DNA from: Candidatus Omnitrophota bacterium
GTDB taxonomy: Bacteria; Omnitrophota; Gorgyraeia; Gygaellales; Profunditerraquicolaceae
DNA length: 64,000 nt
Direction: 5' to 3'
NCBI GenBank assembly: GCA_041651115.1
Contig: JBAZJY010000001.1
Location: forward strand, 581,165 to 645,164
The notes beneath the pieces are model-generated. The model did no database searches, was not told the DNA's origin, and saw only the letters and a program-made list of their open reading frames with translations. A program made the position numbers and the translations under genes. This document shows, piece after piece, positions 481 through 61,120 of this stretch (the first letter of the stretch is position 1; each line of letters opens with the position of its first letter).

Positions 481-483
481 TTC

Positions 484-1053
484 TCAAAGAGAATCTCTCT
501 CTTTTTTGAATATGTTCCTGATCCCGCCGAGGAATTTCTTGGCCGGTTTTTTATTTTCGGGGTGTTTTTCTTCCTTGACCGCCGTATCCGTGCGCGGCTT
601 CTGCTTGTGTTCTTCAGCCGACTGTTCCGACGGTTTTCCCGCTGTTTTTTCTTCGCCTTTAACAGCTTCTTTTTTCGGCTTCTTGACTTCTCTTTTCTTG
701 ATCTCGGTAAATTCGAGGATAGACATTTCAGCGCCGTCTCCCCGCCTGTTGCCCAAACCGATCACGCGCACGTAACCGCCTGTGCGCTTGGCAAACCGCG
801 GGCCGATATCCTTGAACAGGGCGCTTACAAGCTTATGGTCTCCCAGGATCTGAAAAGCCCGCCTTCTGGCAGTAAGCGTATCTTCTTTTGCTAAAGTGAT
901 CAGCTTTTCTACCAAAGGCTTAACCGCCATCGCCCTATGTTTTGTAGTTTTGATGGACTGGTTAATAAGCACGCTTCGCGCCATGCTTATCATCGTGGCC
1001 TTATACCAGCTTGTAAAACGGTTTAACTGCAGTCGTTTATCTTTATGTCTCAT
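484..1053 (-). CDS. rplQ: 50S ribosomal protein L17 with ~70 aa Lys/Glu-rich C-terminal extension
   Basis: ORF track 189 aa; N-terminal 120 aa match L17 (RHKDKRLQLNR...GGYVRVI); last gene of alpha operon after rpoA. Confidence 0.9.
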   Translation of the reverse strand: MRHKDKRLQLNRFTSWYKATMISMARSVLINQSIKTTKHRAMAVKPLVEKLITLAKEDTLTARRRAFQILGDHKLVSALFKDIGPRFAKRTGGYVRVIGLGNRRGDGAEMSILEFTEIKKREVKKPKKEAVKGEEKTAGKPSEQSAEEHKQKPRTDTAVKEEKHPENKKPAKKFLGGIRNIFKKERDSL

Positions 1054-1072
1054 TTCTCCTCGCCTGTGATTG

Positions 1073-2062
1073 CTATTTCTTTATTTTTTTCGGGTCAACC
1101 TGCATGCCTAAAGCAAGGCCCATACCCGCAAGAAGCTCTTTGATTTCCGTTAATGATTTTTTGCCGAAATTCTTGAATCCCAGCATTTCCTCTTCGCCTC
1201 TCCTGACCAGGTCGCCGATGATCTTGATATTGGCTTCCCTAAGGCAGTTTGAGCTCCTGACCGAAAGTTCCAACTCCGATATCGGCAGCCTTAATTTTTC
1301 GTAGAGGACAACTTCTTCCTTGGTCATCTCCGGCTCTTCCTCTTCAATGTCTTCGGGAAGCTGGCCAAAACTGACAAAGATATCCAAATGCCTCTGTAAA
1401 ATATTTGAGGCATACAAGAGCGCGTCTTTAGGGGATATCGCGCCGTTGGTAAAGACCTCAAGGATCAACTTATCGTAATCCGTCCTCTGGCCGACGCGGG
1501 TATTCTCCACGAAGAAATCCACTTTTAGCACCGGAGAAAATATGGAATCAACCGGAATAACTTCCAGCGGATGGTCCTCTTTCTTGTTCTGTTCAGCCGG
1601 CACATAACCCCTGCCCCTTGCCACTTCCATTTCAAGGTGGAACTTGGCATCCTTGGTAAGCGTGGCAATGTGCAATTCGGGATTAATGATCTCAATGGTG
1701 TCGTCTGCCTCAATGTCCTTTGCCTTGATCTCGCCCTTTGTGTTCTTTTTGATGTAGATCGTCTTGGGGATCTTGGAATGGGAATTGATCACCAGGTTCT
1801 TTATGTTCAGGATGATCTCGGTAACGTCTTCCAGCACGCCGGGGATAGAAGAAAATTCATGGCTTACGCCGTCGAATTTCACCGCGGTGACCGCGCTGCC
1901 TTCAATAGACGACAAAAGCACCCTGCGCAGGGAATTGCCGAGGGTTACGCCATAGCCTCTTTCAAAAGGCGCGGCGATGAATTTCCCGTACGTGTTGGTG
2001 TAAGTGGCCTCGTCGCAATCAAGCCTTTTCGGTAACTGAAAATCTCTCCATTTTATACCCAT
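1073..2062 (-). CDS. rpoA: DNA-directed RNA polymerase subunit alpha
   Basis: 329 aa, alpha NTD/CTD motifs, position after rpsD. Confidence 0.95.
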   Translation of the reverse strand: MGIKWRDFQLPKRLDCDEATYTNTYGKFIAAPFERGYGVTLGNSLRRVLLSSIEGSAVTAVKFDGVSHEFSSIPGVLEDVTEIILNIKNLVINSHSKIPKTIYIKKNTKGEIKAKDIEADDTIEIINPELHIATLTKDAKFHLEMEVARGRGYVPAEQNKKEDHPLEVIPVDSIFSPVLKVDFFVENTRVGQRTDYDKLILEVFTNGAISPKDALLYASNILQRHLDIFVSFGQLPEDIEEEEPEMTKEEVVLYEKLRLPISELELSVRSSNCLREANIKIIGDLVRRGEEEMLGFKNFGKKSLTEIKELLAGMGLALGMQVDPKKIKK

Positions 2063-3115: not shown

Positions 3116-3517
3116 TTACTTTGCAGCCGGTTTCTTATCGTCAGCCTTCTTGATCACCGCCATATTGCCGCGGCGCGGGCCTTTACGCGTCCTGGAATTA
3201 GTCCTTGTGCGCTGGCCCCTCACAGGCAGGCCCTTTTTATGGCGCATACCGCGCCAGGCTCCGACATCCATCAGGCGCTTGATATTCTGTGAAATTTCAC
3301 GCCGGAGATCGCCTTCTACCTTATAATTTGCCTTTTGGATGATACCGGTGATATGCAAGATCTCCGCTTCCGTCAGGTCCTTGGCGCGTTTGCCGGGATC
3401 GATCCCTGCTTCTTTAAGTATTTCGTTGGACAATGCCCTGCCCACTCCAAATAAATACATCAAAGCGATCTCAATCCTTTTTTCCTTTGGGATATCAATA
3501 CCTAAAATTCTCGGCAC
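3116..3517 (-). CDS. rpsM: 30S ribosomal protein S13
   Basis: 133 aa, [14 protein letters not shown]... S13 N-terminus. Confidence 0.95.
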
Positions 3518-3527
3518 CTTGTTCCTC

Positions 3528-3652: not shown

Positions 3653-3871
3653 TTATTTGATTCTAAACGTTATCCTACCCCTGCTTAGATCATAAGGGGA
3701 AAGTTCCAGCTTTACCTTATCTCCGGGCAGTATTCTGATGAAATTCATCCTCATCTTGCCGGAAACATGGGCAAGCACAACATGCCCGTTCTCCAGCTCT
3801 ACCCTGAACATCGCGTTAGGCAGCGCTTCAATGATCTTGCCTTCCGTCTCAATAAGGTCTTCTTTAGCCAT
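3653..3871 (-). CDS. infA: translation initiation factor IF-1
   Basis: 72 aa, [30 protein letters not shown]... Confidence 0.95.
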
Positions 3872-4619
3872 CTATGGGTGTCAGTATCTCCGGGCCGTTT
3901 TCTGTCACGGCAACGGTCTCTTCAAAATGCGCCGAAGGAAGGCCATCCCTCGTTACCGCTGTCCAGCCGTTTTCCATTATCTCACATTCCCACTCGCCCA
4001 GATTTACCATCGGTTCGATGGCAAGCACCATGCCGCTTTTGAGCGGCTGGTTCTGGCGGGGATTGACAAAGTTCGGTATTTCCGGCTCCTCATGAAGGTT
4101 TATGCCTATGCCGTGGCCGACAAACTGCCGCACCACGGAAAAACCGTTTTTTTCCACGCAACCCTGTATCGCTTGAGATATGTCCCTGATCCGGTTGTCA
4201 ATGCGTGCTTGTTTTACGCCTTCAGAAAGAGCAGTCCGGGAAACCTCGATCAACTTCTTTAAATCAGGGTGTATCCTGCCTACGCCTACGGTGATTGCCG
4301 CGTCGGAAAAATACCCCTCGTAATTTACTCCCATGTCAACGCTGACAATGTCGCCTTCCGCGAGCTTCCTGGCGGAGGGTATGCCATGCACTACTTCCTC
4401 GTTGACGGAAACGCAAATATTTGCCGGGAACCCTTTGTAACCTTTAAATGCCGGCAAGCCGCCTTCTTTAAGGATCAACTCCCCTGCCAGCCGGTCAAGC
4501 TCAACCGTGGATATGCCCGCTTTTATGCACTGCCTTAATTGCTGCATTACCCGGCCGAGGATCCGGCCTGAGGCGCGCATCATCTCTAAGTCCCGCTCAG
4601 ACTTTAAGGGGATCATCAA
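3864..4619 (-). CDS. map: methionine aminopeptidase type I
   Basis: 251 aa, MetAP metal-ligand motifs; position between adk and infA. Confidence 0.9.
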
Positions 4620-4621
4620 AT

Positions 4622-5263
4622 TTACTGCACCAGGCTGATAATTTTATTCAAAACCGTTTCCGCTTCTTCATCGGCGGAGATCTGCTGCAATTTATTTTTC
4701 GCCCGGTAATACTCAATCAGGGGCGCTGATTCTTTACGGTAAACATCCAGCCGCTTCTTTATCGTCTCTTCTTTGTCGTCCTGCCTCTGGTAAAGCTGGC
4801 TGCCGCAATTGTCGCAGACCATATCTTTTTTCGGCGGCATGTTCTTAATGTGATAATTGGCATTGCACCCCTTGCAGGCAAGCCTGCCGGAAAGCCGCTG
4901 AATGATCACTGCTTCACTGGTGTCCAGGTCGATCACGCGGTCTATATCAATACCCTTCTTCTTAAATAACCCGTCTAAGGATTCAGCCTGGCTGATATTA
5001 CGGGGATAACCGTCTAAAATAAAACCGTTTTTTGTATCCGGTTCGTCAAGCCTTCCGGAAACCATCCGGGTAACCAGCTCATCCGGAACAAGCAGCCCCT
5101 TATTCATATAATCCTTTGCCTGTCTGCCTAATTCCGTTCCATTGGCAACGTTTTGGCGAAGGATATCGCCCGTAGAGATGTGGGCCAGGCCAAGTTTTTT
5201 TGCCAGTGTCTTTGCCTGCGTCCCCTTTCCCGCTCCGGGAGGGCCCATTAATATGATCTTCAT
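4622..5263 (-). CDS. adk: adenylate kinase (zinc-lid form)
   Basis: 213 aa, P-loop GPPGAGKGTQ and CxxC...CxxC lid. Confidence 0.95.
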   Translation of the reverse strand: MKIILMGPPGAGKGTQAKTLAKKLGLAHISTGDILRQNVANGTELGRQAKDYMNKGLLVPDELVTRMVSGRLDEPDTKNGFILDGYPRNISQAESLDGLFKKKGIDIDRVIDLDTSEAVIIQRLSGRLACKGCNANYHIKNMPPKKDMVCDNCGSQLYQRQDDKEETIKKRLDVYRKESAPLIEYYRAKNKLQQISADEEAETVLNKIISLVQ

Positions 5264-6610
5264 TTATCTTCTGCCTTTGATCTTGCCTGCTTTGATAAAG
5301 CCTTCGTAATGGTGCATCAGAAGGTGCGATTCAATTTGTTTTATGGTATCCAGCATAACTCCGACGGTGATCAGTATGCCCGTGCCTCCGAAGAACGAAG
5401 CTACGAGATAAGGGATATTCAACCAGGCCATAATGAAGTCCGGCAAGATCGCGATCACCGCGATAAATATCGCGCCGGCAAGGGTGATCCTGGTCATGAT
5501 AAAATCCAGGTATTCGGCAGTGGTAACGCCCGGCCGTATGCCGGGGATAAAACCGCCGTATTTTTTCATGTTCTCCGAAAGGTCAACCGGGTTGAACACG
5601 ATCGCGGTATAAAAATAACAAAAGAAAATTATCAGCAGCGCGTAAACCGAAGTATATAAAAGATGGCCTCTCATCAGGCCCTGCGCCAGCCTCTGGAACG
5701 CGGGGTTGGGGATGAATGAAGCCAGCGTCGCCGGAAAAAGGATAATTGACTGCGCGAAAATTATCGCGATGACTCCCGACGTATCTACCTTAAGCGGTAT
5801 GTAAGTGCTTTGCCCGCCGTAGATCTTCCTGCCGACTACCCGGCGCGCGTACTGCACCGGAATTTTTCGCTGGCCCTGCGTGATCATGATTACCGCGAAT
5901 ACCACGCCCACAAGCAAGGCTGCCATAATGATCAGCGTAAACGGCTGGATCTGCCTGCGCGACGGAGCAAAAGGCGAGATCAAGATGAACAACTGATGGA
6001 ACGCCGAAGGTATCCTGGAAATGATGCCTGCGGTGATCACCAGCGATATGCCGTTACCAATGCCCCTTTCCTGTATCTGCTCGCCCAGCCACATAATGAA
6101 TATCGTGCCGGTGGTAAGGGTAAGCACGGTCAGGATCCTGAAACCCCAACCCGGGGACATCACGATCTTTAAGCCTTCAAACCGCTCCGGGTTCTCCAGC
6201 CACAGCGCGATAAAGTAAGACTGGATTATAGAAAGCACGACTGTGCCGTAACGGGTGAATTGATTTATCTTTTCGTAACCTGCCTTGCCTTCTTTCGCCA
6301 GTTTTTCCAGCGCCGGGATAACCGCGGTCAAAAGCTGCATGATAATTGAAGATGAAATATAGGGCATGATGCCCAAGGCGAATATAGTCAGCCTTTCCAT
6401 TGCCCCGCCTGAAAACATATTGATTATGCCAAAGAGCGCCCCGCCTTGAGTCTTGGCGATACGGGCAAAAAATTCCGCCAGCGCCGCTCCGTCAATGCCC
6501 GGTGTCGGCACATAGCAGCCGACGCGGTATACCGTGATCAATGCGAGCGTAACGATTAAGCGTTTTTTTAAATCGGGGATTTTAAATGAATTAGCTAATG
6601 CGCTAAGCAT
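5264..6610 (-). CDS. secY: preprotein translocase subunit SecY
   Basis: 448 aa multi-TM protein, canonical position after rplO. Confidence 0.95.
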   Translation of the reverse strand: MLSALANSFKIPDLKKRLIVTLALITVYRVGCYVPTPGIDGAALAEFFARIAKTQGGALFGIINMFSGGAMERLTIFALGIMPYISSSIIMQLLTAVIPALEKLAKEGKAGYEKINQFTRYGTVVLSIIQSYFIALWLENPERFEGLKIVMSPGWGFRILTVLTLTTGTIFIMWLGEQIQERGIGNGISLVITAGIISRIPSAFHQLFILISPFAPSRRQIQPFTLIIMAALLVGVVFAVIMITQGQRKIPVQYARRVVGRKIYGGQSTYIPLKVDTSGVIAIIFAQSIILFPATLASFIPNPAFQRLAQGLMRGHLLYTSVYALLIIFFCYFYTAIVFNPVDLSENMKKYGGFIPGIRPGVTTAEYLDFIMTRITLAGAIFIAVIAILPDFIMAWLNIPYLVASFFGGTGILITVGVMLDTIKQIESHLLMHHYEGFIKAGKIKGRR

Positions 6611-7178
6611 TCAGGACCTCGAAACTGCCACCTGCACCCTTAATCTTTTCCTGCGCTGACTTTGAAAACGCGTTTGCCTGCACGGTAACTGCGGATTTGA
6701 TCTGGCCTTCGCCGAGGATCTTTACCGGGATGTGCCTAGTACGGATCAAACCGCTTTTTTCCAAAACTTCGGGATTTATCACTGTATCCTTGATCTTATT
6801 CAAGGCATCAAGGTTAACGATCTGAAATTCTTTTCTGAATCTGCTCACGAACCCGCGCTTGGCAATCCTGCGTATTAAAGGGCTCTGTCCGCCTTCAAAT
6901 CCCGCGTACATATGCCTGCCTGCGCGCGAGGTCTGGCCTTTGCTGCCGCGCGTGGAAGTCTTTCCGTGGCCGGAACTCGGGCCGCGGCCTAAAATTCTTT
7001 TCTTCTGATGCGCTCCCCTGGGCGCTTTTAAATTATGCAGGCCGAAAATTTCGGTTTTCGGCGTTTGAGGCCCTGCCGGTTTTTTAACCCTGCGCACGCG
7101 TACGGGTTTTACCTGCGCTTTTACCGGTTCAGCTGCTGGTTTTTTTGCTGCTTTATGTTTAAAAATTCTTCTTTCCAT
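6603..7178 (-). CDS. rplO: 50S ribosomal protein L15 with ~45 aa basic N-terminal extension (or internal alternative start)
   Basis: 191 aa; conserved L15 core starts near LHNLKAPRGAHQKKRILGRGPSSGHGKT; directly follows rpsE with no room for rpmD (L30). Confidence 0.85.
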   Translation of the reverse strand: MERRIFKHKAAKKPAAEPVKAQVKPVRVRRVKKPAGPQTPKTEIFGLHNLKAPRGAHQKKRILGRGPSSGHGKTSTRGSKGQTSRAGRHMYAGFEGGQSPLIRRIAKRGFVSRFRKEFQIVNLDALNKIKDTVINPEVLEKSGLIRTRHIPVKILGEGQIKSAVTVQANAFSKSAQEKIKGAGGSFEVLNA

Positions 7179-7181
7179 AGA

Positions 7182-7673
7182 TTAACTCTCTGCCTTAGGT
7201 CCCGCGGGAGCCTGTGCTTCAAATGTTTTCAGGTTCTTTAGCCCTTCTACCGTTGCCTTAATGACGTTTATAGGATTATTGCTTTTAAGGCACTTAGTAA
7301 GGATATTCTTAATGCCGGCTGCTTCGCAAATCGCCCTGACCGGGCCGGCAGCAATAACGCCGGTTCCTTCGGAAGCGGGTTTAAGCAGGACTTTTGCCGC
7401 TCCGTATTCCCCGATGATCTCATGAGGTATGGTTGAACCTTCAAGAGAAACGCGAAATAGCGATTTCTTGGCTTTGGTCAACGATTTCCTGATGGCGTCG
7501 GCAACTTCATTTGCTTTATCCAGGGCAAACCCTACCCTGCCCTTAGTATCGCCTACCACAACCAAAGCGCTGAAATGCAGTTTTTTACCGCCCTTGGTAA
7601 CCTTGGTTACGCGGTTGATGGAAATAACCTTCTCTATTAATTCCGGTTGTTGCTCAATATTTAATTCGCGCAT
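7182..7673 (-). CDS. rpsE: 30S ribosomal protein S5
   Basis: 163 aa, S5 dsRBD and C-terminal domain. Confidence 0.95.
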
Positions 7674-7674
7674 T

Positions 7675-8037
7675 TTAAAAGACCAATCCCCCTTTTCTTA
7701 ATCCCTCGGCAAACGCTTTTACTCTGCCGTGATAAAGGTATCCGGCGCGGTCAAATACGATCTGATTGACGCCTTTTGCCTTTGCCCTGCGGGCAAACTC
7801 TTCGCCGAAAAATTCCGCGGCCTTGACATTGCCGGCATAAGGGAACTTTGCCTTGACATCCTTGTCCTGCGTTGATAAAGACAATAGGGTCTTATTTACC
7901 GTATCGTCAACGACCTGCGCGCAAAAGTTTTTCAGGCTGCGGCGCACTACCAGGCGCGGCTTTTCCGCCGTGCCGCTTAAGCCCATACGTATCCTTTTGT
8001 GCCTCTTTAATCTCAATACTACTTTTTTATTTTCCAT
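7675..8037 (-). CDS. rplR: 50S ribosomal protein L18
   Basis: 120 aa L18 family. Confidence 0.9.
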
Positions 8038-8044
8038 TTTTTCC

Positions 8045-8590
8045 CTATTTAGAAGTCGCCTGCGCCTTGCCGACCTTCTTCTTCACGTATTCGCCGGCAT
8101 AGCGTATGCCTTTTCCTTTGTAAGGTTCAGGCGGATATACGGCGCGGATCTCCGCGGCAATTTCGCCGACTTTTTCTTTATCAATGCCCCTGATCACCAA
8201 TTGCGTGGGTTTTGGGGCTTCGATTTTAATTCCTTCGGGTATGACAAAATTCACCGGATGGGAAAAGCCTAATGCCATGTTTAGCTTATTGCCCTGGATC
8301 TGCGCCTTGAACCCGACACCGATGATCTCTAATTCTTTTACATAGCCTTCACTGACGCCCTTGATCATATTGGCGACCAGCGCGCGGAAAAGGCCGTGCA
8401 AACAACGGTCCTGCTTGGTATCTACTATCCGCGTTATAAAAACTTGATTATCTTTTATTTCAAGCTTAAGCCGGTCGGAAAAAGAACGCGACAACTTACC
8501 CTTAGGCCCTTCAACAGAAAGTATGCCGTCCTTGGCTTCAACCTTTACGTCTTTAGCTATCGCAACCGGTTTTTTTCCTATTCTTGACAT
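8045..8590 (-). CDS. rplF: 50S ribosomal protein L6
   Basis: 181 aa, MSRIGKKPV... L6 N-terminus. Confidence 0.95.
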   Translation of the reverse strand: MSRIGKKPVAIAKDVKVEAKDGILSVEGPKGKLSRSFSDRLKLEIKDNQVFITRIVDTKQDRCLHGLFRALVANMIKGVSEGYVKELEIIGVGFKAQIQGNKLNMALGFSHPVNFVIPEGIKIEAPKPTQLVIRGIDKEKVGEIAAEIRAVYPPEPYKGKGIRYAGEYVKKKVGKAQATSK

Positions 8591-8599
8591 ATTCCCTCT

Positions 8600-8995
8600 C
8601 TACCAAATATAACCTATTACTTCTCCGCCAAGTGCCAGCTCCCGCGCTTGCTTATCGGTAACTATGCCCTTGGAGGTAGAAACTACCGCAATGCCTTTTC
8701 CTCTTAAGACTACCGGCACTTTATCCGCCTTAACATATAAACGCAGGCCCGGCCGGGACACCCTCTTAATATTCCTTATCGCGGGCTTGCCGAACAAATA
8801 CCTTAAATATACGCGCAGCAACGCCTGCTTGCTGTCTTCTACGGCTTTGAAGGTCTCAATATAATTCTCTTTCTTAAGTACCTCCAGGATGGCCTTTATC
8901 GTATTTGATGCCGGCACATCTACGCATTCTTTCTTTGCCATAATGGCATTGCGTATGATCGTAAATGTATCCGCGATTAAATCGTTTTTTGACAT
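8600..8995 (-). CDS. rpsH: 30S ribosomal protein S8
   Basis: 131 aa S8 family. Confidence 0.95.
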   Translation of the reverse strand: MSKNDLIADTFTIIRNAIMAKKECVDVPASNTIKAILEVLKKENYIETFKAVEDSKQALLRVYLRYLFGKPAIRNIKRVSRPGLRLYVKADKVPVVLRGKGIAVVSTSKGIVTDKQARELALGGEVIGYIW

Positions 8996-9019
8996 TTTAT
9001 TTTTATGCTCCCTCTTATA

Positions 9020-9205
9020 TTACCAGCTTGCTTTTTTTACGCCCGGTATCAGGCCCTGCCATGCCAATTCCCTGAAACAGATCCGGCATAATTGGAACCT
9101 TCTAAGATACCCGCCGGAGCGGCCGCAAATATGGCAGCGGTTATACTTACGCGCCGTGAACTTTGCCGGCCTTTTCCATCTTGCTAATTGTGAATTTTTT
9201 GCCAT
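9020..9205 (-). CDS. rpsN: 30S ribosomal protein S14 type Z (zinc-binding, 61 aa)
   Basis: 61 aa with CHICGRSGG...CRICFRE Cys4 motif. Confidence 0.9.
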
Positions 9206-9774
9206 TATTTCTCCGCCTGTTTAAACGGCATGCCAAAAAGCCGCAGTAACTCCCTTGCCTGTTCCTGCGATTTGGCATTCTTGATCACGAAAGTTATGTC
9301 CATACCCTGCGAGCGACTAAGCCTGTCGATCTCCAACTCCGGGAAAATATTCTGTTCCGTAAGCCCCAGCGTATAATTGCCGGAGGCGTCAAAAGAATCA
9401 ACGGGAACGCCCCGGAAGTCGCGTATACGCGGCATCGTTACGTTAAAAAGCCTGTCCATAAACTCATACATCATCGCGCGGCGCAAAGTGACTTTACAGC
9501 CGACCGGCTGGTTTTCCTTGACCTTGAAATTGGAAATAGCTTTCTTTGCCCTGCGCATTACCGGTTTCTGGCCGGTGATGGTAGCCATTTCTTCCATTGC
9601 CTTTTCAAGGATCTTGACGTCTTGCAGCGCCTCGCCTACGCCCATATTCACGACTATTTTTTCTACCCGCGGCACGGCAAACCTGTTTTTAAGCGCAAAC
9701 TTTTCCGTCATCTGCGGGATGATTTCGTTCCTGTATTTTTCCAGTAACCTGGGAGTTGTTTTTTTCTCGCTCAT
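9205..9774 (-). CDS. rplE: 50S ribosomal protein L5
   Basis: 189 aa L5 family. Confidence 0.95.
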
Positions 9775-10085
9775 TATATTAATTCCTTGCAGGCCTTGCA
9801 GACCCGCGACTTAGTCCCGTCTTTTGCAACGCTGAAGCCTACGCGGCTGGGACGGTTGCAATGCTTGCATACAAGCATAATGTTTGAAAGCGCGATAGTG
9901 GACTCAATGGAAACAATGCCGCCCTGCTGGTCCTGCTGGGTTTTGCGCTTGTGCTTCTTAACCATATTCACGCCTTCAACCAGCGCGCGGCCTCTTTCCG
10001 CAAAGACTTCCAGGACCCTGCCCTTTTTGCCTTTGTCTCTGCCTTTTATCGCCTGGACTGTATCGTTCTTTTTTATCCTGAACAT
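9774..10085 (-). CDS. rplX: 50S ribosomal protein L24 with C-terminal CxxC...CxxC zinc-knuckle
   Basis: 103 aa, KOW domain; C-terminal CKHCNRPSRVGFSVAKDGTKSRVCKACKELI. Confidence 0.9.
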   Translation of the reverse strand: MFRIKKNDTVQAIKGRDKGKKGRVLEVFAERGRALVEGVNMVKKHKRKTQQDQQGGIVSIESTIALSNIMLVCKHCNRPSRVGFSVAKDGTKSRVCKACKELI

Positions 10086-10454: not shown

Positions 10455-10730
10455 TTATTCTTCCTTGACGGAAATGTGCGCCGTTTGCGACTTCTTGGTT
10501 ATTTCCACCAGCCGGTAGCGTTTATCCTTTGATATCGGCCGCGTTTCTTCTATGCGCACGATGTCGCCTAATTTAGAAGCGTTCTCTTCATCGTGGACCT
10601 TGAACTTGTTAAACTGTTTGCTGACCCGGTTATACTTAGGATGCTTGGCAATGCGCGTGACCTTTACCACGCGGGTCTTTTGCATCTTATCGCTGACTAC
10701 TTCTCCGGTATATTGCCTTCTCGCGCCCAT
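10455..10730 (-). CDS. rpsQ: 30S ribosomal protein S17
   Basis: 91 aa S17 family. Confidence 0.9.
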
Positions 10731-10733
10731 TAT

Positions 10734-10940
10734 TTATGCCTGCACTTTCTTTTCTTTTAAGATCGTATTGATACGCGCAATGTCTTTCTTTACGGACAGA
10801 AACATATGCGGCTTATCCACTCTGCCGGAATAACGCTGCACGTTAAGTTTTGAGAGCTCTTCTTTTAAGGCCTTTGCCTTAGCCAATAACTCTTCTTTAC
10901 CGATACCGCGTAATTCCTGTAATTTATCTTTACGCTTCAT
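10734..10940 (-). CDS. rpmC: 50S ribosomal protein L29
   Basis: 68 aa L29 family. Confidence 0.9.
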   Translation of the reverse strand: MKRKDKLQELRGIGKEELLAKAKALKEELSKLNVQRYSGRVDKPHMFLSVKKDIARINTILKEKKVQA

Positions 10941-30198: not shown

Positions 30199-30271
30199 CA
30201 GGGGCGGAGGGACTTGAACCCCCAGGACGGGATTTGGAGTCTCGCCGTTTAGCCAATTAACGGACGCCCCT
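30199..30271 (-). tRNA. trnW: tRNA-Trp (anticodon CCA)
   Basis: Manual fold of minus strand: AGGGGCG acceptor, anticodon loop CUCCAAA, T-loop GGTTCAAGTCC; CCA tail not encoded. One A-C mismatch in the anticodon stem. Confidence 0.85.
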
Positions 30272-30507: not shown

Positions 30508-30580
30508 AGCTGGAGACGGGAATTGAACCCGTGACCCCGTCCTTACCAAGGACGTGCTCTACCAACTGAGCTACTCCAGC
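30508..30580 (-). tRNA. trnT: tRNA-Thr (anticodon GGT)
   Basis: Manual fold: GCTGGAG acceptor, D-loop AGTTGGTAGAGC, anticodon loop UUGGUAA, T-loop GGTTCAATTCC, discriminator U. Confidence 0.9.
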
Positions 30581-41611: not shown

Positions 41612-42367
41612 CTATATCCTAACCGCTACTCCTCTTTCCGATAAGTATTCCTTGACCTGGCCCACCGAATATTCCTGATAATGAAAAATTGAAGCGGCAA
41701 GGCAGGCATCTGCCCCGGACTTAGTTATCACATCATAAAAATGTTCCGGTTTTCCCGCTCCGCCGGAAGCAATCACCGGTATATTCACCGCTTCGCTGAT
41801 CGCCTTTGTCAAAGCAAGGTCATAGCCGTCCTTGGTACCGTCATAATCCATACTCGTTAAAAGGATCTCTCCGGCGCCAAGTTCAGCGCATTTTTTTGCC
41901 CATTCCACGGCGTCCAGGTCAACCGGCGTCCTGCCGCCATTGATAAAAACCTGCCAGCTGTCGCCTTCTTTCTTGGCATCAATAGCCACAACAATACACT
42001 GGCTGCCGAATTTTCCTGCCGCGTCCCTGACCAATTCGGGGAATTTAACTGCTGCCGTATTTATGGAAACTTTATCCGCCCCGGCGCTCAGGAGATCTCT
42101 GATATCGTCAATGTCCCTGATGCCGCCGCCTACTGTAAACGGCATATAAATATTCTGGGCAATATTGTCAACCAGTTCAATCAGGGTCTTTCGTTGCTCA
42201 AAGCTTGCGGTAATGTCAAGGAACACCAGCTCATCCGCTTTCTGCCGGTCATAAACCTTGGCAACTTCTACCGGGTCTCCCGCGTCTTTAAGGCCGAGGA
42301 ACTTTATTCCCTTTACCACCCGGCCTTCTTTAATGTCAAGGCAGGGGATTATGCGCTTGGTGAGCAT
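41612..42367 (-). CDS. hisF: imidazole glycerol phosphate synthase cyclase subunit
   Basis: 251 aa TIM-barrel HisF. Confidence 0.95.
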
Positions 42368-42819
42368 TATTTTACTTTTTTATATAAATATTCTGCCAGC
42401 AGCTGGCGGGTCTGTTTACCCACAATGCCGTCTGCCTTAAGGCCGTTATCTTTCTGAAACGCCTTGATCGCTTCGCGTGTCTGGCGGCCGATTTTTCCGT
42501 CAATTGCCCCGGGATTATAACCGGCATTCTTAAGCGCAATCTGGATCTGCTTTGCGCTTAAACGGCTTTTAGACTTAGACGCTACGGATTTTTTTGCGAA
42601 ATTCTGGCGGGATGCAGAAGCTCTATCCATCTGCGCTGCCAGTGAATCTTTTAGGCTGCTGATCTCTTCATCTTTTTCCTGGACCTGGGCCTCTAAAACA
42701 GAAACCTGATTCCTCAAACCCTGCATTTCCTCGCTGCTCTGCTTGCGGCAGGTAGCGCATCCGGCGAGCGAAAGTACGAATAAAGGTAAAACGAAAAACA
42801 AAGTCAATTTTTTGAACAT
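42367..42819 (-). CDS. lipoprotein with coiled-coil region and C-terminal peptidoglycan-binding domain, embedded in the his cluster
   Basis: 150 aa; lipobox LAGC, PG_binding_1-like repeat ([43 protein letters not shown]); stop overlaps hisF start. Confidence 0.7.
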
Positions 42820-42835: not shown

Positions 42836-42911
42836 TAGGGACGGTTCTCAGTCCAAGGGAAAAGTGTCCCCACCCGGGGACATTTTTCTCCTTGGCTGAG
42901 AACCGTCCCTA
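42836..42911. repeat. family-1 palindromic repeat element, copy A (TAGGGACGGTTCTCA ... TGAGAACCGTCCCTA, nested inner hairpin GTGTCCCC/GGGGACAT)
   Basis: 76-bp near-perfect hairpin; its last 3 nt (cta) form the hisA TAG stop. Confidence 0.85.
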
Positions 42912-43628
42912 AATCCTCAATGCCTGCGTCAGGGTAAACTTACCCTCATACAAGGCCTTTCCGATAATTATTCCGCTGACTCCGTCTTTTTCCAATAATT
43001 TCAATTTCATTATATCTTCAAGAGAAGATATTCCACCGGAAGCGACAACCTTTAATCTGCTTTCCTTAAGCAGGGCTTTTATCCCTTTGATGTTCGGCCC
43101 TTTTAACATACCGTCTTTAGATATATCAGTGTAGATCACTTCTTTAAATCCCAGCGCCTTAAGCTGCTTTGCCAGGCTTACTGCCTCAAGCTTGGTGCTT
43201 TTTTCCTGCCAGCCCTTAACCAGCACCTGTCCGTCACGGGCATCTATGCTAACAATAACTTTATTTTTAAATTTCTTAAAAGCCTCTTTTAAAAACGTGC
43301 TGTCTTCAATGGCTTTTGTGCCCAGCACAACCCGGGAAACTCCGGCATCAAGCAGGGCTTTGATAGTTTCAATTTTCCTGACCCCGCCGCCGAATTCAAG
43401 CGCGGCCCGGGTTTGCGCTGCGATCTGCTTTACGATTTCCAGGTTTTTCGGGATGCCGGTCGTCGCGCCGTCTAAGTCTACGACATGGATCAGCTGCGCG
43501 CCCTGCCTAAGCCAATGCTTGGCAACCTTTATGGCGTCGCGTGAATAAATCTTTTTATCTTTAAGCCGGCCCTGGGTAAGCCTTACCACGCAGCCGTCTT
43601 TTAAATCTATCGCCGGTATGATCAACAT
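42909..43628 (-). CDS. hisA: 1-(5-phosphoribosyl)-5-[(5-phosphoribosylamino)methylideneamino]imidazole-4-carboxamide isomerase
   Basis: 239 aa TIM-barrel HisA. Confidence 0.93.
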   Translation of the reverse strand: MLIIPAIDLKDGCVVRLTQGRLKDKKIYSRDAIKVAKHWLRQGAQLIHVVDLDGATTGIPKNLEIVKQIAAQTRAALEFGGGVRKIETIKALLDAGVSRVVLGTKAIEDSTFLKEAFKKFKNKVIVSIDARDGQVLVKGWQEKSTKLEAVSLAKQLKALGFKEVIYTDISKDGMLKGPNIKGIKALLKESRLKVVASGGISSLEDIMKLKLLEKDGVSGIIIGKALYEGKFTLTQALRI

Positions 43629-51087: not shown

Positions 51088-51163
51088 TAGGGACGGTTCT
51101 CAACTCAAAGCTAAAGTGTCCCCTTGGAGGGGACACTTTACGATTGGCTTGAGAACCGTCCCT
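51088..51163. repeat. family-1 palindromic repeat element, copy B
   Basis: TAGGGACGGTTCTCAACTCAAAGCTAAAGTGTCCCCTTGGAGGGGACACTTTACGATTGGCTTGAGAACCGTCCCTG between btuB stop and tonB-like start. Confidence 0.85.
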
Positions 51164-51167
51164 GAAT

Positions 51168-53024
51168 TTAAAACTCAAGTTTTAGCCCACCGGTGGCGGA
51201 AAATCCGGGCATTGGATAATCGCGGATAACTTGATATCTCCTCGCGGAAAGATTATCCACCGAGCCAAAACAGGTTACTCCCTTAGAAAATTTCTTTGAC
51301 AAACCGAGCCCAAAAACAAAAAATCTTTTTACGGAAATAGAATTGGCGGCATTATGGAACCTTTTATCCGTAAACTGGCCCTTGAATTCAAAGACAACCC
51401 CCTTAAAACCCTTATACCTCAACAAAAGGTCCGCTTTATTCTTAGGCTGATATATCAGGTATTTTCTGGTTTTATCATCTATCGCCCGCATATAAGTATA
51501 GTTAAGTCCTAACTCCAGATTATCAAGGAGATAAAAGGTATTGCTGAATTCTACGCCGTCAATCAATGCCGACCCGATATTTGTAGGGCTCCATACGCCG
51601 TTGTCATCGGCAGCCCAATTGATCAACTGCTTGTAAACGCTTCGATAGTACGTTACGCCCGAAGAGAAATATTCGCAGGGTTTAACATCAATGCCAACCT
51701 CCCCGGTCGTCCCCTTTTCGGGCCTAAGGTTTGGGTTGCCCTTTGACCAGCCTTCATCCGGCCAATACAAGTCGTTAAAGGTAGGCGCGCGGAAAGAACG
51801 CGCAACCAGGCCGTGTAATTTAATATTTTCTGATATTTTATAAACCGCGCTCAGGCTGGGGCTGAATTGCGCACCGAAATTTGAATAGTCATCTACCCTT
51901 GCGCTGAAGTTCAGCTTAAATTTAGAAGTTACATCCCACTGGTTTTCCATGTAAGCTGCCTTGACATTATATTTATGTTTTGCCGAAGACGTACTATCGT
52001 TATAGTTACCTACATAATTCAAACCGCCGATCAACTGATAAAAATCAAAGAGCTTACGGTTAAATTGCAGCTCAAGCCCCCTGGCTACCGTTGAATGGAT
52101 GTTTTTAGCATTAGCTGAATCAAAGATTGAACCGGCGCTGTTCTCAATGAATTCCAGGCGGTCATAATTACGGTAGATCCTGGCAGAAAAGCCCGTAAGA
52201 TTATCCGGCTTAAAATTCCAGGCCAAATCAAGGTAATTCGTAAGAGCCAGCTGCTTATCATCCGTATCGGGAGAACTGACAGCTCCGGGCAGGCCTGACT
52301 TATTCCTGTAAAATCCGGATCCCAGCCTAAGTGTACTGCTATCGTTAAGGCGGTATTCAAATTTAGCGTTTGCATCTTTGGAGTTGACCTTGGAATTATC
52401 ACGGAAACCTTGCGAGCTCAAGTAGCCTCCGCTAAAAAGGTAACCAAAACCCCCCACCCTGCCGCCGTGAAGCAACCGGTCGGTATAAGTCCTGAAAGTG
52501 CCAAAGCTGGAGCTGACCGACGTCTCAAATCCTTTTATGGGAGGCTGCTTAGTGATAATATTGACGGTGCCGCCCATTGCCTGTGAGCCGTATAAACTGG
52601 AAGCCGGACCATGGACAACTTCAATCCGTTCGATATTGTCTAAGGGAATCGTGCTGAGGTCAACTTGCCCGCTGCGCGGATTATTCACCGGCCTGCCGTC
52701 AACGGTAACTAGGACCTGTTCTGCCGTGGAACCGCGCATCCTGATACTCTTTAATTCGCCTACTCCGCCATAATCACTGATATCGACTGAAGTCAAACCC
52801 GTCAAAGCCGCGGCAACATCTTTTGCCCCGGAATATTCGATCTCTTTTGCGGTAACCACGTCCACGCTGCAGGCAGTATCACCGCAATATTCTTCTATCT
52901 TAGACGGAGTTACGACTATTTTTTCCAGGTCGATATCTCCGGCGCTTGAGCTGCCTGCCGCAACCGAAAATAATAAAACCGCCGCTAATACTATGCTAAA
53001 TAAATATTTCATATTCCTGTCCAT
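51168..53024 (-). CDS. btuB: TonB-dependent outer-membrane receptor, BtuB-like (vitamin B12/corrinoid transporter)
   Basis: 618 aa, signal peptide, TonB box EKIVVTPSK, plug plus 22-strand barrel size, C-terminal Phe; preceded by a cobalamin riboswitch. Confidence 0.85.
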   Translation of the reverse strand: MDRNMKYLFSIVLAAVLLFSVAAGSSSAGDIDLEKIVVTPSKIEEYCGDTACSVDVVTAKEIEYSGAKDVAAALTGLTSVDISDYGGVGELKSIRMRGSTAEQVLVTVDGRPVNNPRSGQVDLSTIPLDNIERIEVVHGPASSLYGSQAMGGTVNIITKQPPIKGFETSVSSSFGTFRTYTDRLLHGGRVGGFGYLFSGGYLSSQGFRDNSKVNSKDANAKFEYRLNDSSTLRLGSGFYRNKSGLPGAVSSPDTDDKQLALTNYLDLAWNFKPDNLTGFSARIYRNYDRLEFIENSAGSIFDSANAKNIHSTVARGLELQFNRKLFDFYQLIGGLNYVGNYNDSTSSAKHKYNVKAAYMENQWDVTSKFKLNFSARVDDYSNFGAQFSPSLSAVYKISENIKLHGLVARSFRAPTFNDLYWPDEGWSKGNPNLRPEKGTTGEVGIDVKPCEYFSSGVTYYRSVYKQLINWAADDNGVWSPTNIGSALIDGVEFSNTFYLLDNLELGLNYTYMRAIDDKTRKYLIYQPKNKADLLLRYKGFKGVVFEFKGQFTDKRFHNAANSISVKRFFVFGLGLSKKFSKGVTCFGSVDNLSARRYQVIRDYPMPGFSATGGLKLEF

Positions 53025-57081: not shown

Positions 57082-57603
57082 TTATCCTTTCTTAATTTTC
57101 ATCGGTATGCCGGAAACCGTAAAAAATACTTCATCGGCTTCTTTGGCTACCAGTTGATTTACCCTGCCGGCAATATCGCGGAACTGCCTTGCCAGCTTAT
57201 TTGCCGGGACTATACCTAAGCCGACTTCATTAGAAACCAGAATTACTTTTGATTTCCCCTGCTTTAATGCCGTAAGCATTTTTATTACCTGCTGCGTGAT
57301 CTTTTCTTCTTTATTCCCGCCAAGCAGAAGATTAGAGACCCATAATGTCAGGCAATCTATAACAATGCAGTCAAAATTATTCTTTATTTGCCCTAATGCG
57401 ACGGTAATATCCCGGCCTTGCTCAAAGGTAGCCCAGCTTTTTGGCCGAGACTGTTGATGTTTTTTAATGCGCTGCCGCATTTCTTTATCTAAGCCCCGGC
57501 AGGTTGCCACAAAGGCCACCTTTTTATGTTTTTTTGCCAACTCCAGGGCAAAGCTGCTTTTCCCGCTGCGCGCTCCGCCTAAAATAAAAATTATTTTTCC
57601 CAT
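57082..57603 (-). CDS. cobU: bifunctional adenosylcobinamide kinase / adenosylcobinamide-phosphate guanylyltransferase
   Basis: 173 aa, P-loop GGARSGKS, CobU/CobP family. Confidence 0.88.
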   Translation of the reverse strand: MGKIIFILGGARSGKSSFALELAKKHKKVAFVATCRGLDKEMRQRIKKHQQSRPKSWATFEQGRDITVALGQIKNNFDCIVIDCLTLWVSNLLLGGNKEEKITQQVIKMLTALKQGKSKVILVSNEVGLGIVPANKLARQFRDIAGRVNQLVAKEADEVFFTVSGIPMKIKKG

Positions 57604-58235
57604 TTCTTTTTAGTAGGGACGGTTCTCAAGCCAATCTTAAAGTGTCCCTTTTTAGGGGACAGTTTAGCTTTGAGTTGAGAACCGTCCCTCTTGTATTCAA
57701 CTACTGTGACGCTTGCCGGTTTAGGGATATGCTGCCAGAATTTCCTTGACTTAAGCAGGCTGCTGACAAAAATGCCGATCACTCCGCCGTGGCAGACAAC
57801 GGCGACGGTTTTATCCGGATTGGCGCGGCAGATCTGGTTGATCTGGCCGCAGATGCGCTCCTTAAAATCGCGTAGTTTTTCGGCTTTGGGGATATGGTGC
57901 CTATGCGGATCCTTAACCCAATTCTCATAAAGCGCGCCATATTTTTTTAAGATCGCCTTATGCCGCAGGCCTTCAAGCACCCCGAAATTTATTTCACGCA
58001 AGCCCTTTACCTTGGTGAATTTACTTTTACCGAAAACAATGCGGCAAGTCTCCAGCGCCCGCTTCTTATCGCTTGAATAGATTTTATCAAAACCGATGCC
58101 TTTAAGCGCGGATGCCAGTTTCTTTGCCTGCCGTTTTCCTTCCCTGCTCAAGCCCACATCAATGCGGCCGCAATAACGTTTCTCTTTATTCCAGGCCGTG
58201 ATCCCATGGCGGATCAAGACCAATCTCGTGTTCAT
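57591..58235 (-). CDS. cobC: alpha-ribazole-5'-phosphate phosphatase (histidine phosphatase family); C-terminal ~25 aa encoded by family-1 repeat copy C
   Basis: 214 aa, RHG catalytic motif (LIRHGITAWN); reads through 57614-57689 element and stops 13 nt inside cobU. Confidence 0.8.
   Translation of the reverse strand: MNTRLVLIRHGITAWNKEKRYCGRIDVGLSREGKRQAKKLASALKGIGFDKIYSSDKKRALETCRIVFGKSKFTKVKGLREINFGVLEGLRHKAILKKYGALYENWVKDPHRHHIPKAEKLRDFKERICGQINQICRANPDKTVAVVCHGGVIGIFVSSLLKSRKFWQHIPKPASVTVVEYKRDGSQLKAKLSPKKGHFKIGLRTVPTKKKWEK
57614..57689. repeat. family-1 palindromic repeat element, copy C, in frame inside the 3' end of cobC
   Basis: TAGGGACGGTTCTCAAGCCAATCTTAAAGTGTCCCTTTTTAGGGGACAGTTTAGCTTTGAGTTGAGAACCGTCCCT. 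Confidence 0.85.
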
Positions 58236-60832: not shown

Positions 60833-61063
60833 CTTATAAAAAAAATTCCCGATCCGGTATCTTCTACCATGATCGGGTCGCACCCAGCTTGCTATGGCCC
60901 TATCCACGAGGCTGCACATGCACAGGCAGGTCTTCTGACTCAAGGATCATCCTACTCGCTGCGCCTTCCCGGCCGGCTTAACGCGGCAGTGGCTTTTGCA
61001 GCTTTCGTCCCCTCTTACAGCAGCGGGACTGTGGCCGGTTTAAACGGCCTTCCCTAACCCATG
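60833..61063 (-). promoter_or_regulatory. cobalamin (AdoCbl-type) riboswitch with intrinsic terminator expression platform, leader of btuFCD-cobCUTSQ operon
   Basis: Minus strand: GGTTAGGGAAGGCCG ... GGCCACAGTCCCGCTGCTGTAAGAGGGGACGAAAGC ... AAAGCCACTGCCGCG ... B12 box GAGTCAGAAGACCTGCC (60925-60941); terminator hairpin CCCGATCATGGTAGAAGATACCGGATCGGG then AATTTTTTTTAT (60833-60877). Confidence 0.9.
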
Positions 61064-61120
61064 CATTGATTTATATGTTTTAGGTTACACCGCTAAAGAA
61101 ATATTGTCAAGCAATTATTA

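Follow-up and report, generated by a model that had tools for sequence, protein, structure and literature searches.

The reading frame of cobC in this Candidatus Omnitrophota genome, which encodes a CobC-like histidine phosphatase (a likely vitamin B12 salvage enzyme), passes through a palindromic repeat before it stops, and this raises the question of whether the end of the protein is ancestral or was supplied by the repeat. The window (the entire 64,000-nt stretch of DNA that was analyzed) includes a cobalamin riboswitch at the head of a btuFCD-cobC-cobU-cobT-cobS cluster, in which cobC lies between a btuD-like gene and cobU, and the riboswitch-controlled operon is intact (Table 1). The CobC protein is 100% identical to an NCBI MAG protein (P0001), scores 176 bits against His_Phos_1, and has alpha-ribazole phosphatase (TIGR03162) as its top NCBIfam match, at a sub-cutoff 135 bits (cutoff 162.9). 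Its core (residues 1–182) is intact, and its tail (residues 183–214) is non-canonical. As had been predicted, the frame crosses the full element and ends 13 nt inside cobU; the translation of the ORF matches the expected C-terminus exactly, ...SVTVVEYK-RDGSQLKAKLSPKKGHFKIGLRTVP-TKKKWEK, with the core of the repeat (copy C) coding on the minus strand for residues 183–207.

Table 1. Window coordinates of the genes, repeat copies, and RNA element discussed in the text.
Feature	Position	Strand	Evidence and remarks
Element copy A	42836..42911		Three-copy alignment, covariance model; hairpin −63 kcal/mol
hisA	42909..43628	-	TIGR00007, 270.9 bits; residues 3–235 correspond to model positions 1–230 of 231
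Element copy B	51088..51164		3 nt past the TonB-dependent receptor stop; upstream of a TonB-like gene
TonB-dependent receptor gene	51168..53024	-	Pfam Plug and TonB_dep_Rec_b-barrel; same cobalamin gene cluster
cobU, adenosylcobinamide kinase / guanylyltransferase	57082..57603	-	Pfam CobU, 1.2e-62; NCBIfam NF004469, 210 bits (above cutoff)
cobC/cobU overlap, 13 nt	57591..57603	-	ATGGGAAAAATAA; contains the cobU start codon and the cobC W-E-K-stop codons
cobC-like histidine phosphatase ORF	57591..58235	-	214 aa; Pfam His_Phos_1, 9e-52
Linker, 12 nt	57603..57614	-	ACTAAAAAGAAA; codes TKKK; shares its final A with the cobU ATG
Element copy C	57614-57690 (core 57615-57689)		Core 75 nt = 25 codons, AGGGACGGTTCT...AGAACCGTCCCT
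Cobalamin riboswitch	60908..61077	-	Rfam RF00174, 95.1 bits (gathering score 31.5)

The window's 64 kb contain three copies of the element (A, B, and C), which share 75 nt apart from the left-terminal nucleotide. The arm GTAGGGACGGTTCTCAA has six matches in the window at ≤3 mismatches, where 0.09 would be expected by chance, and the core GGGACGGTTCTCA has exact matches at the same six sites. The inverted-repeat arms of copy C (57615–57648 and 57656–57689) form an RNA hairpin of −41.9 kcal/mol (z −8.6), and this copy scores 88–91 bits against the covariance model; the hairpins of the three copies range from −42 to −63 kcal/mol, with z-scores of −8.6 to −10. The position of copy B is also occupied by an element in three other loci (L003, L005, and L027). 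At hisA, which is full length against its family model (TIGR00007), the last C of the GTCCC of copy A and the terminal TA form the stop codon at 42909–42911 (CTA on the plus strand, TAG on the minus strand), as the original prediction had it. Among 33 copies, six have a terminal TAG that stops the gene ahead of the element, and this usage is a family trait, not a peculiarity of hisA.

An alignment of orthologues had been proposed as the way to find the ancestral C-terminus, and it proved informative: in place of the window tail, approximately 100 Omnitrophota orthologues that lack the element finish with ...KGKPRIKKFNDIAHL, in the conserved form ...VEYKKGKPRIKKFNDIAHL(E/R). The canonical ending (...KFNDxxHL) was established from 33 aligned orthologues, 120 classified tails, and 62 species-level loci, and F191, N192, H196, and L197 are invariant in the canonical set. 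The sister locus L001, the closest element-free relative, encodes a CobC (P0002) that is 80% identical to that of the window and ends in WER*, with the same 13-nt overlap (ATGGGAAAGATAA). These comparisons show that the tail of the window CobC is element-derived and that the last ancestral strand has been replaced. They also show that WEK, the stop codon, and the overlap with cobU are ancestral features that were retained and did not come from the element. The expectation that the element supplies the C-terminal ~25 residues is supported for residues 183–207, with the refinement that the codons that end the frame did not come from it. Overall, we consider it probable that this tail derives from a REP/REPIN-like repeat and that the ancestral stop was retained.

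The event was not a simple extension of CobC. The element plus the 12-nt linker took the place of the 45 nt that code for the ancestral last strand, an exchange by which the frame was kept. A simple insertion cannot account for the lost 45 nt; one has to assume either a further deletion or that recombination replaced the segment. In the history that we propose, a copy would have come to lie between cobC codon 182 and the cobU start in the window lineage, the 45 nt for the last β-strand of CobC (KxKPxIxKFNDIAHL) would have been lost, and translation would now run across the whole hairpin (the 75-nt core being stop-free in the frame that reads RDGS), return to the ancestral frame, and end at the ancestral TAA 13 nt inside cobU. 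The window and L001 represent a before/after pair at nucleotide resolution, in which the ancestral stop and the gene overlap are preserved.

Only one of the three reading frames of copy C, the one entered as AGG GAC GGT TCT (RDGS), is stop-free, and it likewise lacks stops in 30 of the 40 strand-readings made of 75-nt copies. The chance rate of an open frame across one copy, which we take to be roughly 45%, makes such a frame through a single copy statistically unremarkable. Because the exact window allele was found in one genome only, nothing in the data indicates selection on the open frame.

The cobC-cobU junction holds the element or its decayed remnants in many Omnitrophota lineages, and both cobalamin junctions are also occupied in genomes whose CobC is 55–65% identical to that of the window. 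Nine strong copies were found in ~0.86 Mb of cobC-centered loci from other species (62 species-level loci), and seven of them fall in the cobC-cobU zone, which comprises 1.4% of this sequence (binomial 4e-12, or 3e-5 with only three independent lineages counted). The frame runs on to the ancestral stop in the window copy alone. A second CobC (P0005, locus L205) is also read across a whole element copy. The junction also contains half elements (L206, L011) and short scars (L036, L027, L024), decay products that fit hairpin-mediated or site-specific deletion, and the full copies, half copies, scars, and empty sites together form a natural variant series at one junction. Similar A-rich sequence (TAAAAAGAA) lies after the element in L205, L019, L023, and L011; the combination element-TAAAAAGAA is common to the window, L205, L019, and L023, and AGATTC-element-TAAGGAGAGAGATG is common to L002 and L034. 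Leftover tail codons are absent downstream of every junction copy. Both these flanks, common to different CobC clades, and the missing tail codons argue against purely independent simple insertions. The junction pattern may reflect separate insertions, a single old insertion with later deletion or excision, or an allele spread by recombination; the clade independence of the junction alleles rests only on the NJ topology and the canonical-tailed sisters.

Such repeated occupancy could instead reflect a selected, cis-acting RNA structure, that is, intercistronic punctuation, whether as a hairpin for mRNA stabilization or processing or as a control over translation of what lies downstream, with the CobC tail as a by-product. 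We regard this as possible, although it is not the account that we would expect to hold. The same two junctions (cobC-cobU and the site after the TonB-dependent receptor) are occupied in many genomes, with seven of the nine strong copies in the former, but copies also occur in unrelated contexts (e.g., the his operon), and the junction copy has been lost or has decayed in many lineages. Copies are usually found 0–8 nt past a stop codon and 6–20 nt ahead of the next start, a placement that fits punctuation; for gene-start proximity, the random control already reaches 48%. The hairpins are very stable, lack a T-run, and have arms that are invariant across genomes, whereas the middle of the hairpin shows no covariation, and copies B and C have opposite internal orientations relative to transcription. 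Rfam 15 returned no family at the gathering score or the E-value threshold, and its sub-threshold matches were generic hairpins (miRNA precursors) only. An intrinsic terminator was rejected because no sense-strand T-run follows any of the three window copies. A role as an RNA structure is compatible with a REP/RAYT origin, since E. coli REPs stabilize upstream mRNA.

A related suggestion concerns translation. The cobU ATG lies 11 nt past the end of the −42 kcal/mol hairpin, and read-through may keep cobU translationally coupled to cobC, since ribosomes would melt the hairpin and terminate beside the cobU start codon. The gene layout makes this coupling conceivable, and we put it forward tentatively, as a doubtful proposition. 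In most element-free loci, the cobC stop lies −3 to +13 nt from the cobU ATG. The CobC genes that read through a full copy (the window and L205) have no Shine-Dalgarno sequence before cobU (in the window, none occurs in the 12-nt linker), and AAGGAG follows the element in L002, L034, L014, L016, and L206, where cobC stops inside it. The correlation is imperfect: cobC also stops inside the element in L003, L019, L023, and L013, yet the Shine-Dalgarno sequences there are weak. If read-through preserves coupling, the junction would be a natural test of how operon architecture limits where repeats survive.

The tail of the window CobC is probably a tolerated, largely disordered appendage rather than a functional domain. 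AlphaFold2 models the canonical tail with a strand at residues 185–193 (pLDDT 84–91), whereas the window CobC has pLDDT >90 through residue 182, a weak strand at 189–192, and pLDDT <50 for residues 192–214. Because the FN..HL motif is strongly conserved wherever it is present, the enzyme here could be impaired. One could go further and propose that cobC is decaying, or is an annotation artifact, and that the tail is not produced as part of any working enzyme. We consider this improbable. It would account for the loss of a conserved last strand with its invariant F, N, H, and L, for the predicted disorder, and for the truncated or element-coded tails of approximately one quarter of the listed orthologues, a proportion that marks the 3′ end of cobC as unstable. 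A decaying gene is difficult to reconcile with the remainder of the protein, in which all invariant columns of the orthologue core are intact (the RHG motif and the CHGG histidine among them) and core pLDDT exceeds 90, or with its place in an intact riboswitch-controlled operon and the absence of any in-frame stop ahead of the ancestral one. Furthermore, both the frame and the overlap are unchanged in scarred lineages (L036, for example), which suggests that the canonical tail is dispensable.

The element-derived tail directs attention to the element itself. Copy C is a member of a ~77-nt palindromic repeat family in Candidatus Omnitrophota, probably of REP/REPIN type, with the build of a REP doublet (REPIN). 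The family consists of two inverted half-units, each bounded by GGGAC...GTCCC. The half-unit (AGGGACGGTTCT-N14-AAAGTGTCCCC, ~36 nt) has complementary GGGAC/GTCCC ends, and its motifs are invariant in 32 copies; each element has four copies of the 11-nt motif GGGACRGTTYT, arranged → ← → ←. Over these 32 copies, a 12-bp outer stem and a ~9-bp inner stem are conserved and the middle is variable. Every one of the 33 Omnitrophota-type copies is a doublet, and the central loop measures 3–7 nt (13 nt in one). In the middle, complementarity between the halves of one copy does not exceed that between halves taken from different copies (0.65 versus 0.62, p=0.07), so the halves behave as two independent REP-like units, and compensatory change maintaining the middle of the hairpin was rejected on the same comparison. 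The sole covarying pair in the family divides two arm subfamilies.

The ends of the element bear on its mode of insertion. No target-site duplication occurs in the flanks of the 33 copies, where the YA...TR ends belong to the palindrome and no direct repeat is found, and the filled/empty pair L002/L028 has no clean duplication. A conventional MITE origin, by deletion from a DDE-transposase IS with terminal inverted repeats and a TA duplication, and with insertion in the TA of stop codons, is therefore very improbable. The inverted termini are present, the ends often read TA-GGGAC...GTCCC-TA, and the terminal TAG doubles as an upstream stop, as described above; but the flanking dinucleotides (CA/TA, TA/TG, CA/TG, and TA/TT) vary in combination and are part of the palindrome, and thus are not a duplication. 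In addition, the element is palindromic over its whole length with the terminal motif also internal, and the gene that recurs near copies encodes a Y1 (RAYT-like) transposase, with no recurrent DDE transposase. As for the notion that the tail is original CobC sequence with a mere likeness to the repeat, the His_Phos_1 alignment that reaches residue 189 (seven residues into the element-coded part) and the weak predicted strand there lend it virtually no credibility, as it is refuted by the near-identical 75 nt at hisA and after the TonB-dependent receptor and by the different, conserved tails of element-free orthologues.

A RAYT-type Y1 (HUH) transposase, an enzyme that works on single-stranded DNA hairpins and leaves no target-site duplication, probably mobilizes or maintains the repeat family. 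We lean slightly toward such a link, which is proposed from the common inner hairpin and the GGGAC motifs. No RAYT gene lies within the 64-kb window; P0197 (Y1_Tnp, 196 aa) is probably located on the window's own contig, since its longest contig and the one with the window CobC (P0001) are of equal length (647,104 nt). Its flanks are an inverted pair, the inner hairpin of the dispersed element has a match in the hairpin on the downstream side (GTGTCCC-TTTTT-GGGAC), and hairpins with GGGACGGTTCT/GTGTCCCC would be its substrates. The 196-aa RAYT-like family has >1100 homologues, and every source name given for the best 120 is Omnitrophota or Omnitrophica. At L091, L118, L141, and L167, Y1_Tnp/REP_Tyr_transpos-like genes are flanked on both sides by hairpins with the GGGACGGTTCT core, and exact GGGACGGTTCT hairpins flank RAYT-like genes at non-Omnitrophota metagenome loci. 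The RAYT loci L207, L213, and L214 have the inverted flanks GGGGACGTTCCCCAAAGGGACACC and GGTGTCCC-TTT-GGGACGTCCCC (L014 on the 3′ side only); these flanks share the element's inner hairpin but do not amount to full copies. Among the Omnitrophota RAYT genes examined, none has the full 77-nt element next to it, and the best score against the NCBIfam RAYT model is 70 bits (the L014 homologue; curated cutoff 80).

In-frame palindromic fusions are already known, and what is found here is one gene junction that carries the element in many related bacteria. The closest precedents are the in-frame Rickettsia palindromic elements (RPEs) and the REP/RAYT systems. RPEs, palindromes whose length and open frame allow it, form in-frame translational fusions in protein genes, with a fold that apparently tolerates the insert (PMC10969869). 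Such documented cases bear out the original prediction that fusions of palindromic elements to coding sequence are known, but its view that they are rarely in frame over the full element was too strong, since this is frequent for RPEs (PMC10969869) and P0005 is a further example. As with RPEs, a palindrome lies in frame in a host protein (75 nt, or 25 codons) and the ORF continues to its ancestral stop. RPEs are ~100–150 bp, internal, and encode a conserved peptide, whereas the Omnitrophota element is 75 nt, replaces a C-terminal strand, and encodes a peptide that varies between copies; the two are set side by side by description, and they differ in host phylum and element length.

The resemblance to REP, BIME, and REPIN sequences lies in the short imperfect palindromes, the inverted doublets that form long hairpins, the lack of target-site duplication, and the location between operon genes near stop codons. 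REP/RAYT systems usually comprise a single Y1 (IS200-like) transposase gene with related hairpins inverted on its flanks, an arrangement to which the Omnitrophota RAYT loci probably correspond. The Omnitrophota element differs in having the 11-nt GGGACRGTTYT four times in place of a GTAG-type tetranucleotide next to one hairpin, and what the hairpins beside its RAYT genes have in common with the dispersed element is limited to the inner stem-loop. Correia elements of Neisseria are small, gene-end palindromic repeats that can fuse to or modify ORF 3′ ends and form RNA hairpins, and the Omnitrophota element resembles them in this. ERIC/BOX-type MITEs are similar in the same respects (PMC10969869). 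However, those elements have terminal inverted repeats around a non-palindromic body, and Correia elements duplicate TA and carry promoter and IHF sites; none of these features was seen in the Omnitrophota element.

Literature searches returned nothing relevant on Omnitrophota palindromic repeats, no described REP system for the phylum, and only unrelated primers for the core motif as a text string. The present data suggest that Omnitrophota, for which most knowledge comes from metagenomes, have a system of the REP/RAYT type, with a core motif that recurs in many other environments. A more ambitious reading is that GGGACGGTTCT, the 11-nt core, is the signature of an undescribed REP/RAYT lineage with a wide range (Omnitrophota plus metagenomes from termite gut, rumen, and elsewhere), that its doublets home to stop-codon-proximal operon positions, that cobC-cobU was targeted repeatedly and independently with the CobC C-terminus remodeled each time, and that the open frame in the window was selected for cobU coupling through the −42 kcal/mol hairpin. 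As a whole, this is unlikely; if the lineage and its selection were real, a selfish element would have been recruited to serve as a translated linker between genes. Bacterial proteins have few routes to new terminal or internal segments; the capture of palindromic repeats in frame is one of them, with RPEs as the best-known precedent. Viral contigs contained only four element matches, so the element is not mainly phage-borne. The family is mostly intercistronic, and in the CobC loci examined the element enters coding sequence only at the 3′ end.

The cobC frame runs through the whole of repeat copy C, as originally noted: the 214-residue translation ends ...SVTVVEYK RDGSQLKAKLSPKKGHFKIGLRTVP TKKKWEK, the palindrome lies inside the open reading frame, and the stop falls 13 nt into cobU, which starts at 57603. 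Because the palindrome is contained in the cobC ORF, residues 183–207 are coded by the 75-nt core of the element. The arm of the repeat, GTAGGGACGGTTCTCAA, has six matches at ≤3 mismatches in the window versus 0.09 expected, with exact matches of the core, GGGACGGTTCTCA, at the same six sites, and the hairpins from all three copies fold at –42 to –63 kcal/mol (z-scores –8.6 to –10). The claim that copy A supplies the hisA stop codon is likewise confirmed, the TAG being formed by the last C of GTCCC and the terminal TA; HisA is full length against TIGR00007.

Coordinates of features in the window and in the loci compared
Locus	Feature	Position	Strand	Remark
Window	cobC ORF	57591–58235	minus	
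Window	copy C	57614–57690		
Window	copy C palindrome arms	57615–57648, 57656–57689		within cobC ORF
Window	copy A	42836–42911		
Window	copy B	51088–51164		
Window	hisA ORF	42909–43628	minus	
Window	150-residue lipoprotein-like ORF	42367–42819	minus	PG_binding_1 domain; between hisA and hisF, directly downstream of copy A
Window	cobalamin riboswitch	60908–61077		head of the minus-strand cluster holding cobC
Window	two tRNA genes	30199–30271, 30508–30580	minus	Rfam scan; no relation to the CobC finding
L003	extra partial left arm	10627–10649		
L017	different palindromic insertion	10590–10631		
L058	cobC–cobU spacer	10598–10797		GGTAACG/CGTTACC motifs
L060	cobC–cobU spacer	10598–10720		
L014	196-residue RAYT-like homologue	162–752		directly upstream of putative riboswitch, then cobC, element, cobU
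L014	putative riboswitch	800–1090		resembles a cobalamin riboswitch on visual inspection; operon head unlike the window's
L111	metagenome example of core	3451–3521		
L118	metagenome example of core	3676–5640		
L167	metagenome example of core	7464–8513		
L207	P0197 (RAYT-like) and neighboring genes	6584–10018		downstream of P0197 lie one gene with an AbiEii domain and another with 23S_rRNA_IVP/bAvd domains

CobC orthologues are typically ~198 residues long and end in ...VTVVEYKKGKPRIKKFNDIAHL(E/R), with F191, N192, H196, and L197 invariant in 35 sequences bearing this canonical tail. Since element-free proteins end in this way and not in the window tail, alignment upholds the proposed element origin. 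The closest relative, P0002 of the sister locus L001, is 80% identical and lacks the element; its gene reads ...AHLWER up to a stop 13 nt into cobU (ATGGGAAAGATAA; window counterpart, ATGGGAAAAATAA). Because L001 has the same arrangement, the cobC stop is ancestral, as are the 13-nt overlap and the final three residues, so that the attribution of the C-terminal ~25 residues to the element stands for residues 183–207 and not for this terminal portion. In the window, the 75-nt core together with ACTAAAAAGAAA stands in place of the 45 nt coding KDKPCIVKFNDIAHL; the sequence is longer by a net 42 nt and remains in frame. AlphaFold2 predicts the canonical P0002 tail as a confident strand (residues 185–193; pLDDT 84–91) paired with strand 176–182, and in the window CobC predicts a core with pLDDT >90 to residue 182, then a weak strand (189–192) and pLDDT <50 from residue 192 to the C-terminus. 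Judged from sequence comparison, the window tail is element-derived and stands in for the ancestral strand; the data show a REPIN-like copy where CobC's last strand would otherwise lie. The tail peptide varies freely from copy to copy and is predicted to be disordered; we take it to be tolerated rather than functional. The canonical tail may be dispensable, as roughly one in four of the listed orthologues lacks it (our own count); given that its residues are invariant elsewhere, impaired CobC function is possible.

The element-fused gene encodes a branch-1 histidine phosphatase (Pfam, 9e-52); its best NCBIfam match is alpha-ribazole phosphatase CobC, which scores 135 bits, below the cutoff of 162.9. 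A Candidatus Omnitrophota MAG has a 100% identical protein, encoded on a contig of 647,104 nt. Behind the riboswitch, the cluster comprises a btuF-like ORF, a FecCD-like permease, and an ABC ATPase ORF (from ORF lists; the btuF-like and FecCD-like names rest on position and synteny with annotated loci), followed by cobC, copy C, cobU, cobT-like and cobS-like ORFs, and two more genes, and lastly a TonB-dependent receptor, copy B, and a TonB-like gene.

Copy C has a single stop-free frame, which is the frame in use and leads ribosomes to the ancestral stop within cobU. Because cobU has no Shine-Dalgarno sequence in the window (or in L001) and its ATG lies 11 nt from the end of the hairpin, read-through may preserve termination-reinitiation coupling of cobU to cobC. 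Among the loci compared, whole-copy read-through to the ancestral overlapping stop occurs in the window only; in L205 the frame runs the length of a 76-nt copy to the copy's terminal TAA, 7 nt before cobU, and at the remaining element-bearing loci the cobC stop lies within the element. AAGGAG follows the element in several lineages stopping within it (L002, L034, L014, L016, and L206), a weak trend, since four other such lineages lack it. Separately, L017 carries a different 36-nt palindromic insertion (CCCCGTTAGAAA...TTTCTAACGGGG), in frame in the CobC tail past ...THL and read through to the ancestral VNNE stop with an 8-nt cobU overlap, making it a second case of a read-through hairpin at this junction.

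Two stems are conserved in the element: a 12-bp outer one (AGGGACGGTTCT/AGAACCGTCCCT) and an inner one (AA.TGTCCCC/GGGGACA.TT), which closes a short loop, mostly of 3–7 nt. Since the inner arm is a diverged version of the outer, the 11-nt motif is present four times per element. The middle is variable, with complementarity within a copy no higher than between copies, and the core is most often exactly 75 nt long (20 of 33 aligned copies). Of 40 strand-readings of 75-nt copies, 30 are open in the RDGS...RTVP frame, the one used in the window CobC; this is somewhat above a rough chance estimate of ~45% that ignores kinship. In six of the 33 copies the terminal TAG is the stop codon of the upstream gene. 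No target-site duplication was found at the element flanks, and the Rfam scan matched the element to no family. An intrinsic terminator was rejected, the T-run being absent after the hairpins.

The same junction is occupied in other lineages. Tails consisting of a translated element arm (RDGS... or (Q)GRFS...) occur in 13 of 120 listed orthologues, and elements between cobC and cobU were confirmed on DNA at L002, L003, L005, L205, and L206. A covariance model derived from 32 copies was run on 62 species-level loci of GTDB genomes and found nine strong elements: seven at the cobC/cobU junction (L009, L013, L014, L016, L019, L023, and L034), one after a TonB-dependent receptor (L027), and one after a TonB-like gene (L011). 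This junction zone accounts for 1.4% of the sequence (binomial probability 4e-12, or 3e-5 when only three independent lineages are counted). The position of copy B, 2–8 nt past the receptor stop, is seen again in L003, L005, and L027. CobCs with an element occupy at least five positions in the locus tree and ~8 in the protein tree (trees without support values), mostly with canonical-tailed sisters. Entry points into cobC vary (past codon 182, ...KFKLI, ...KFNQI, and ...KFNNKTHRF), and the downstream end is always 7–12 nt from the cobU ATG. Decay products at the junction include the left half only (L206 and L011), GAGGGACGCTAG (L027), a mini-palindrome (L024), and a 17-nt scar in L036, where the tail reads GKGVPLWEK and the 13-nt overlap is retained. 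The junction copies of L003, L009, L013, L016, and L019 come with an additional 23 nt of partial left arm, in direct repeat (CAGGGACGTTTCT-N6-AAAG); the close relative L023 lacks this addition, which points to slippage or abortive events in the arm. In two Omnitrophota loci (L058 and L060), cobC–cobU spacers of 120–200 nt hold other repetitive-looking sequence, with tight coupling elsewhere.

This recurrence may reflect one or a few old insertions beside cobU followed by deletions and precise excisions, a junction allele spread by recombination, or site-specific targeting. Flanks are common across some CobC clades: L002 and L034 have AGATTC before and TAAGGAGAGAGATG after the element, and TAAAAAGAA follows it in the window, L205, L019, and L023. 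L206 and the window share element subtype, orientation, and entry point, with one C differing, and their CobCs are only 58% identical. Simple insertions at differing points would leave tail codons downstream of the element, and their absence at every copy compared speaks against such events.

The description of fusions in frame over a full element as rare is an overstatement: there are documented cases of palindromic repeats fused in frame to host ORFs, and with Rickettsia palindromic elements (RPEs) they are very frequent (PMC10969869). The CobC fusion resembles those of RPEs. The CobC case extends known kinds (RPE-like fusions and REP/RAYT) to an undescribed phylum-level setting, and is unusual in its retained ancestral overlapping stop and its recurrence at one gene junction.

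From its architecture, and from RAYT-like genes flanked by related hairpins, we interpret the element as probably a REPIN-like REP doublet belonging to a RAYT (REP-associated Y1 tyrosine transposase) system, some but not all hallmarks of which were seen. REP/BIME/REPIN-RAYT systems are well known. Four Omnitrophota RAYT-like genes have inverted flanks, and GTGTCCC-TTTTT-GGGAC, the hairpin on their downstream side, matches the dispersed element's inner hairpin; no full element was found beside the RAYT-like genes examined. The 196-residue RAYT-like family has >1100 homologues, with Omnitrophota/Omnitrophica source names throughout the best 120. One RAYT-like protein, P0197, is probably encoded in the window's own genome, since its longest contig is 647,104 nt, as for the window CobC. 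Its neighborhood includes a bAvd domain; bAvd proteins accompany diversity-generating retroelements.

Among the matches listed from a metagenome scan for the arms, Omnitrophota-type copies occur in varied operon contexts, alongside many other architectures around the same core, GGGACGGTTCT. ORF clustering in the metagenome loci recovered a recurrent Y1 (IS200-like) transposase, whose best NCBIfam match is "REP-associated tyrosine transposase" and which has core-bearing hairpins on both sides in L091, L118, L141, and L167. The 11-nt core has a far wider distribution than the Omnitrophota element does (metagenome loci L087–L204): in the contigs listed, several apparently gut-derived, it lies between short variable inverted flanks (e.g., AGACAG-GGGACGGTTCT-CTGTCT), often arrayed, and it also flanks RAYT-like genes of 263–316 residues with a C-terminal extension. 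Inverted pairs of the core motif occur in only four viral contigs (IMG/VR, L209–L212).
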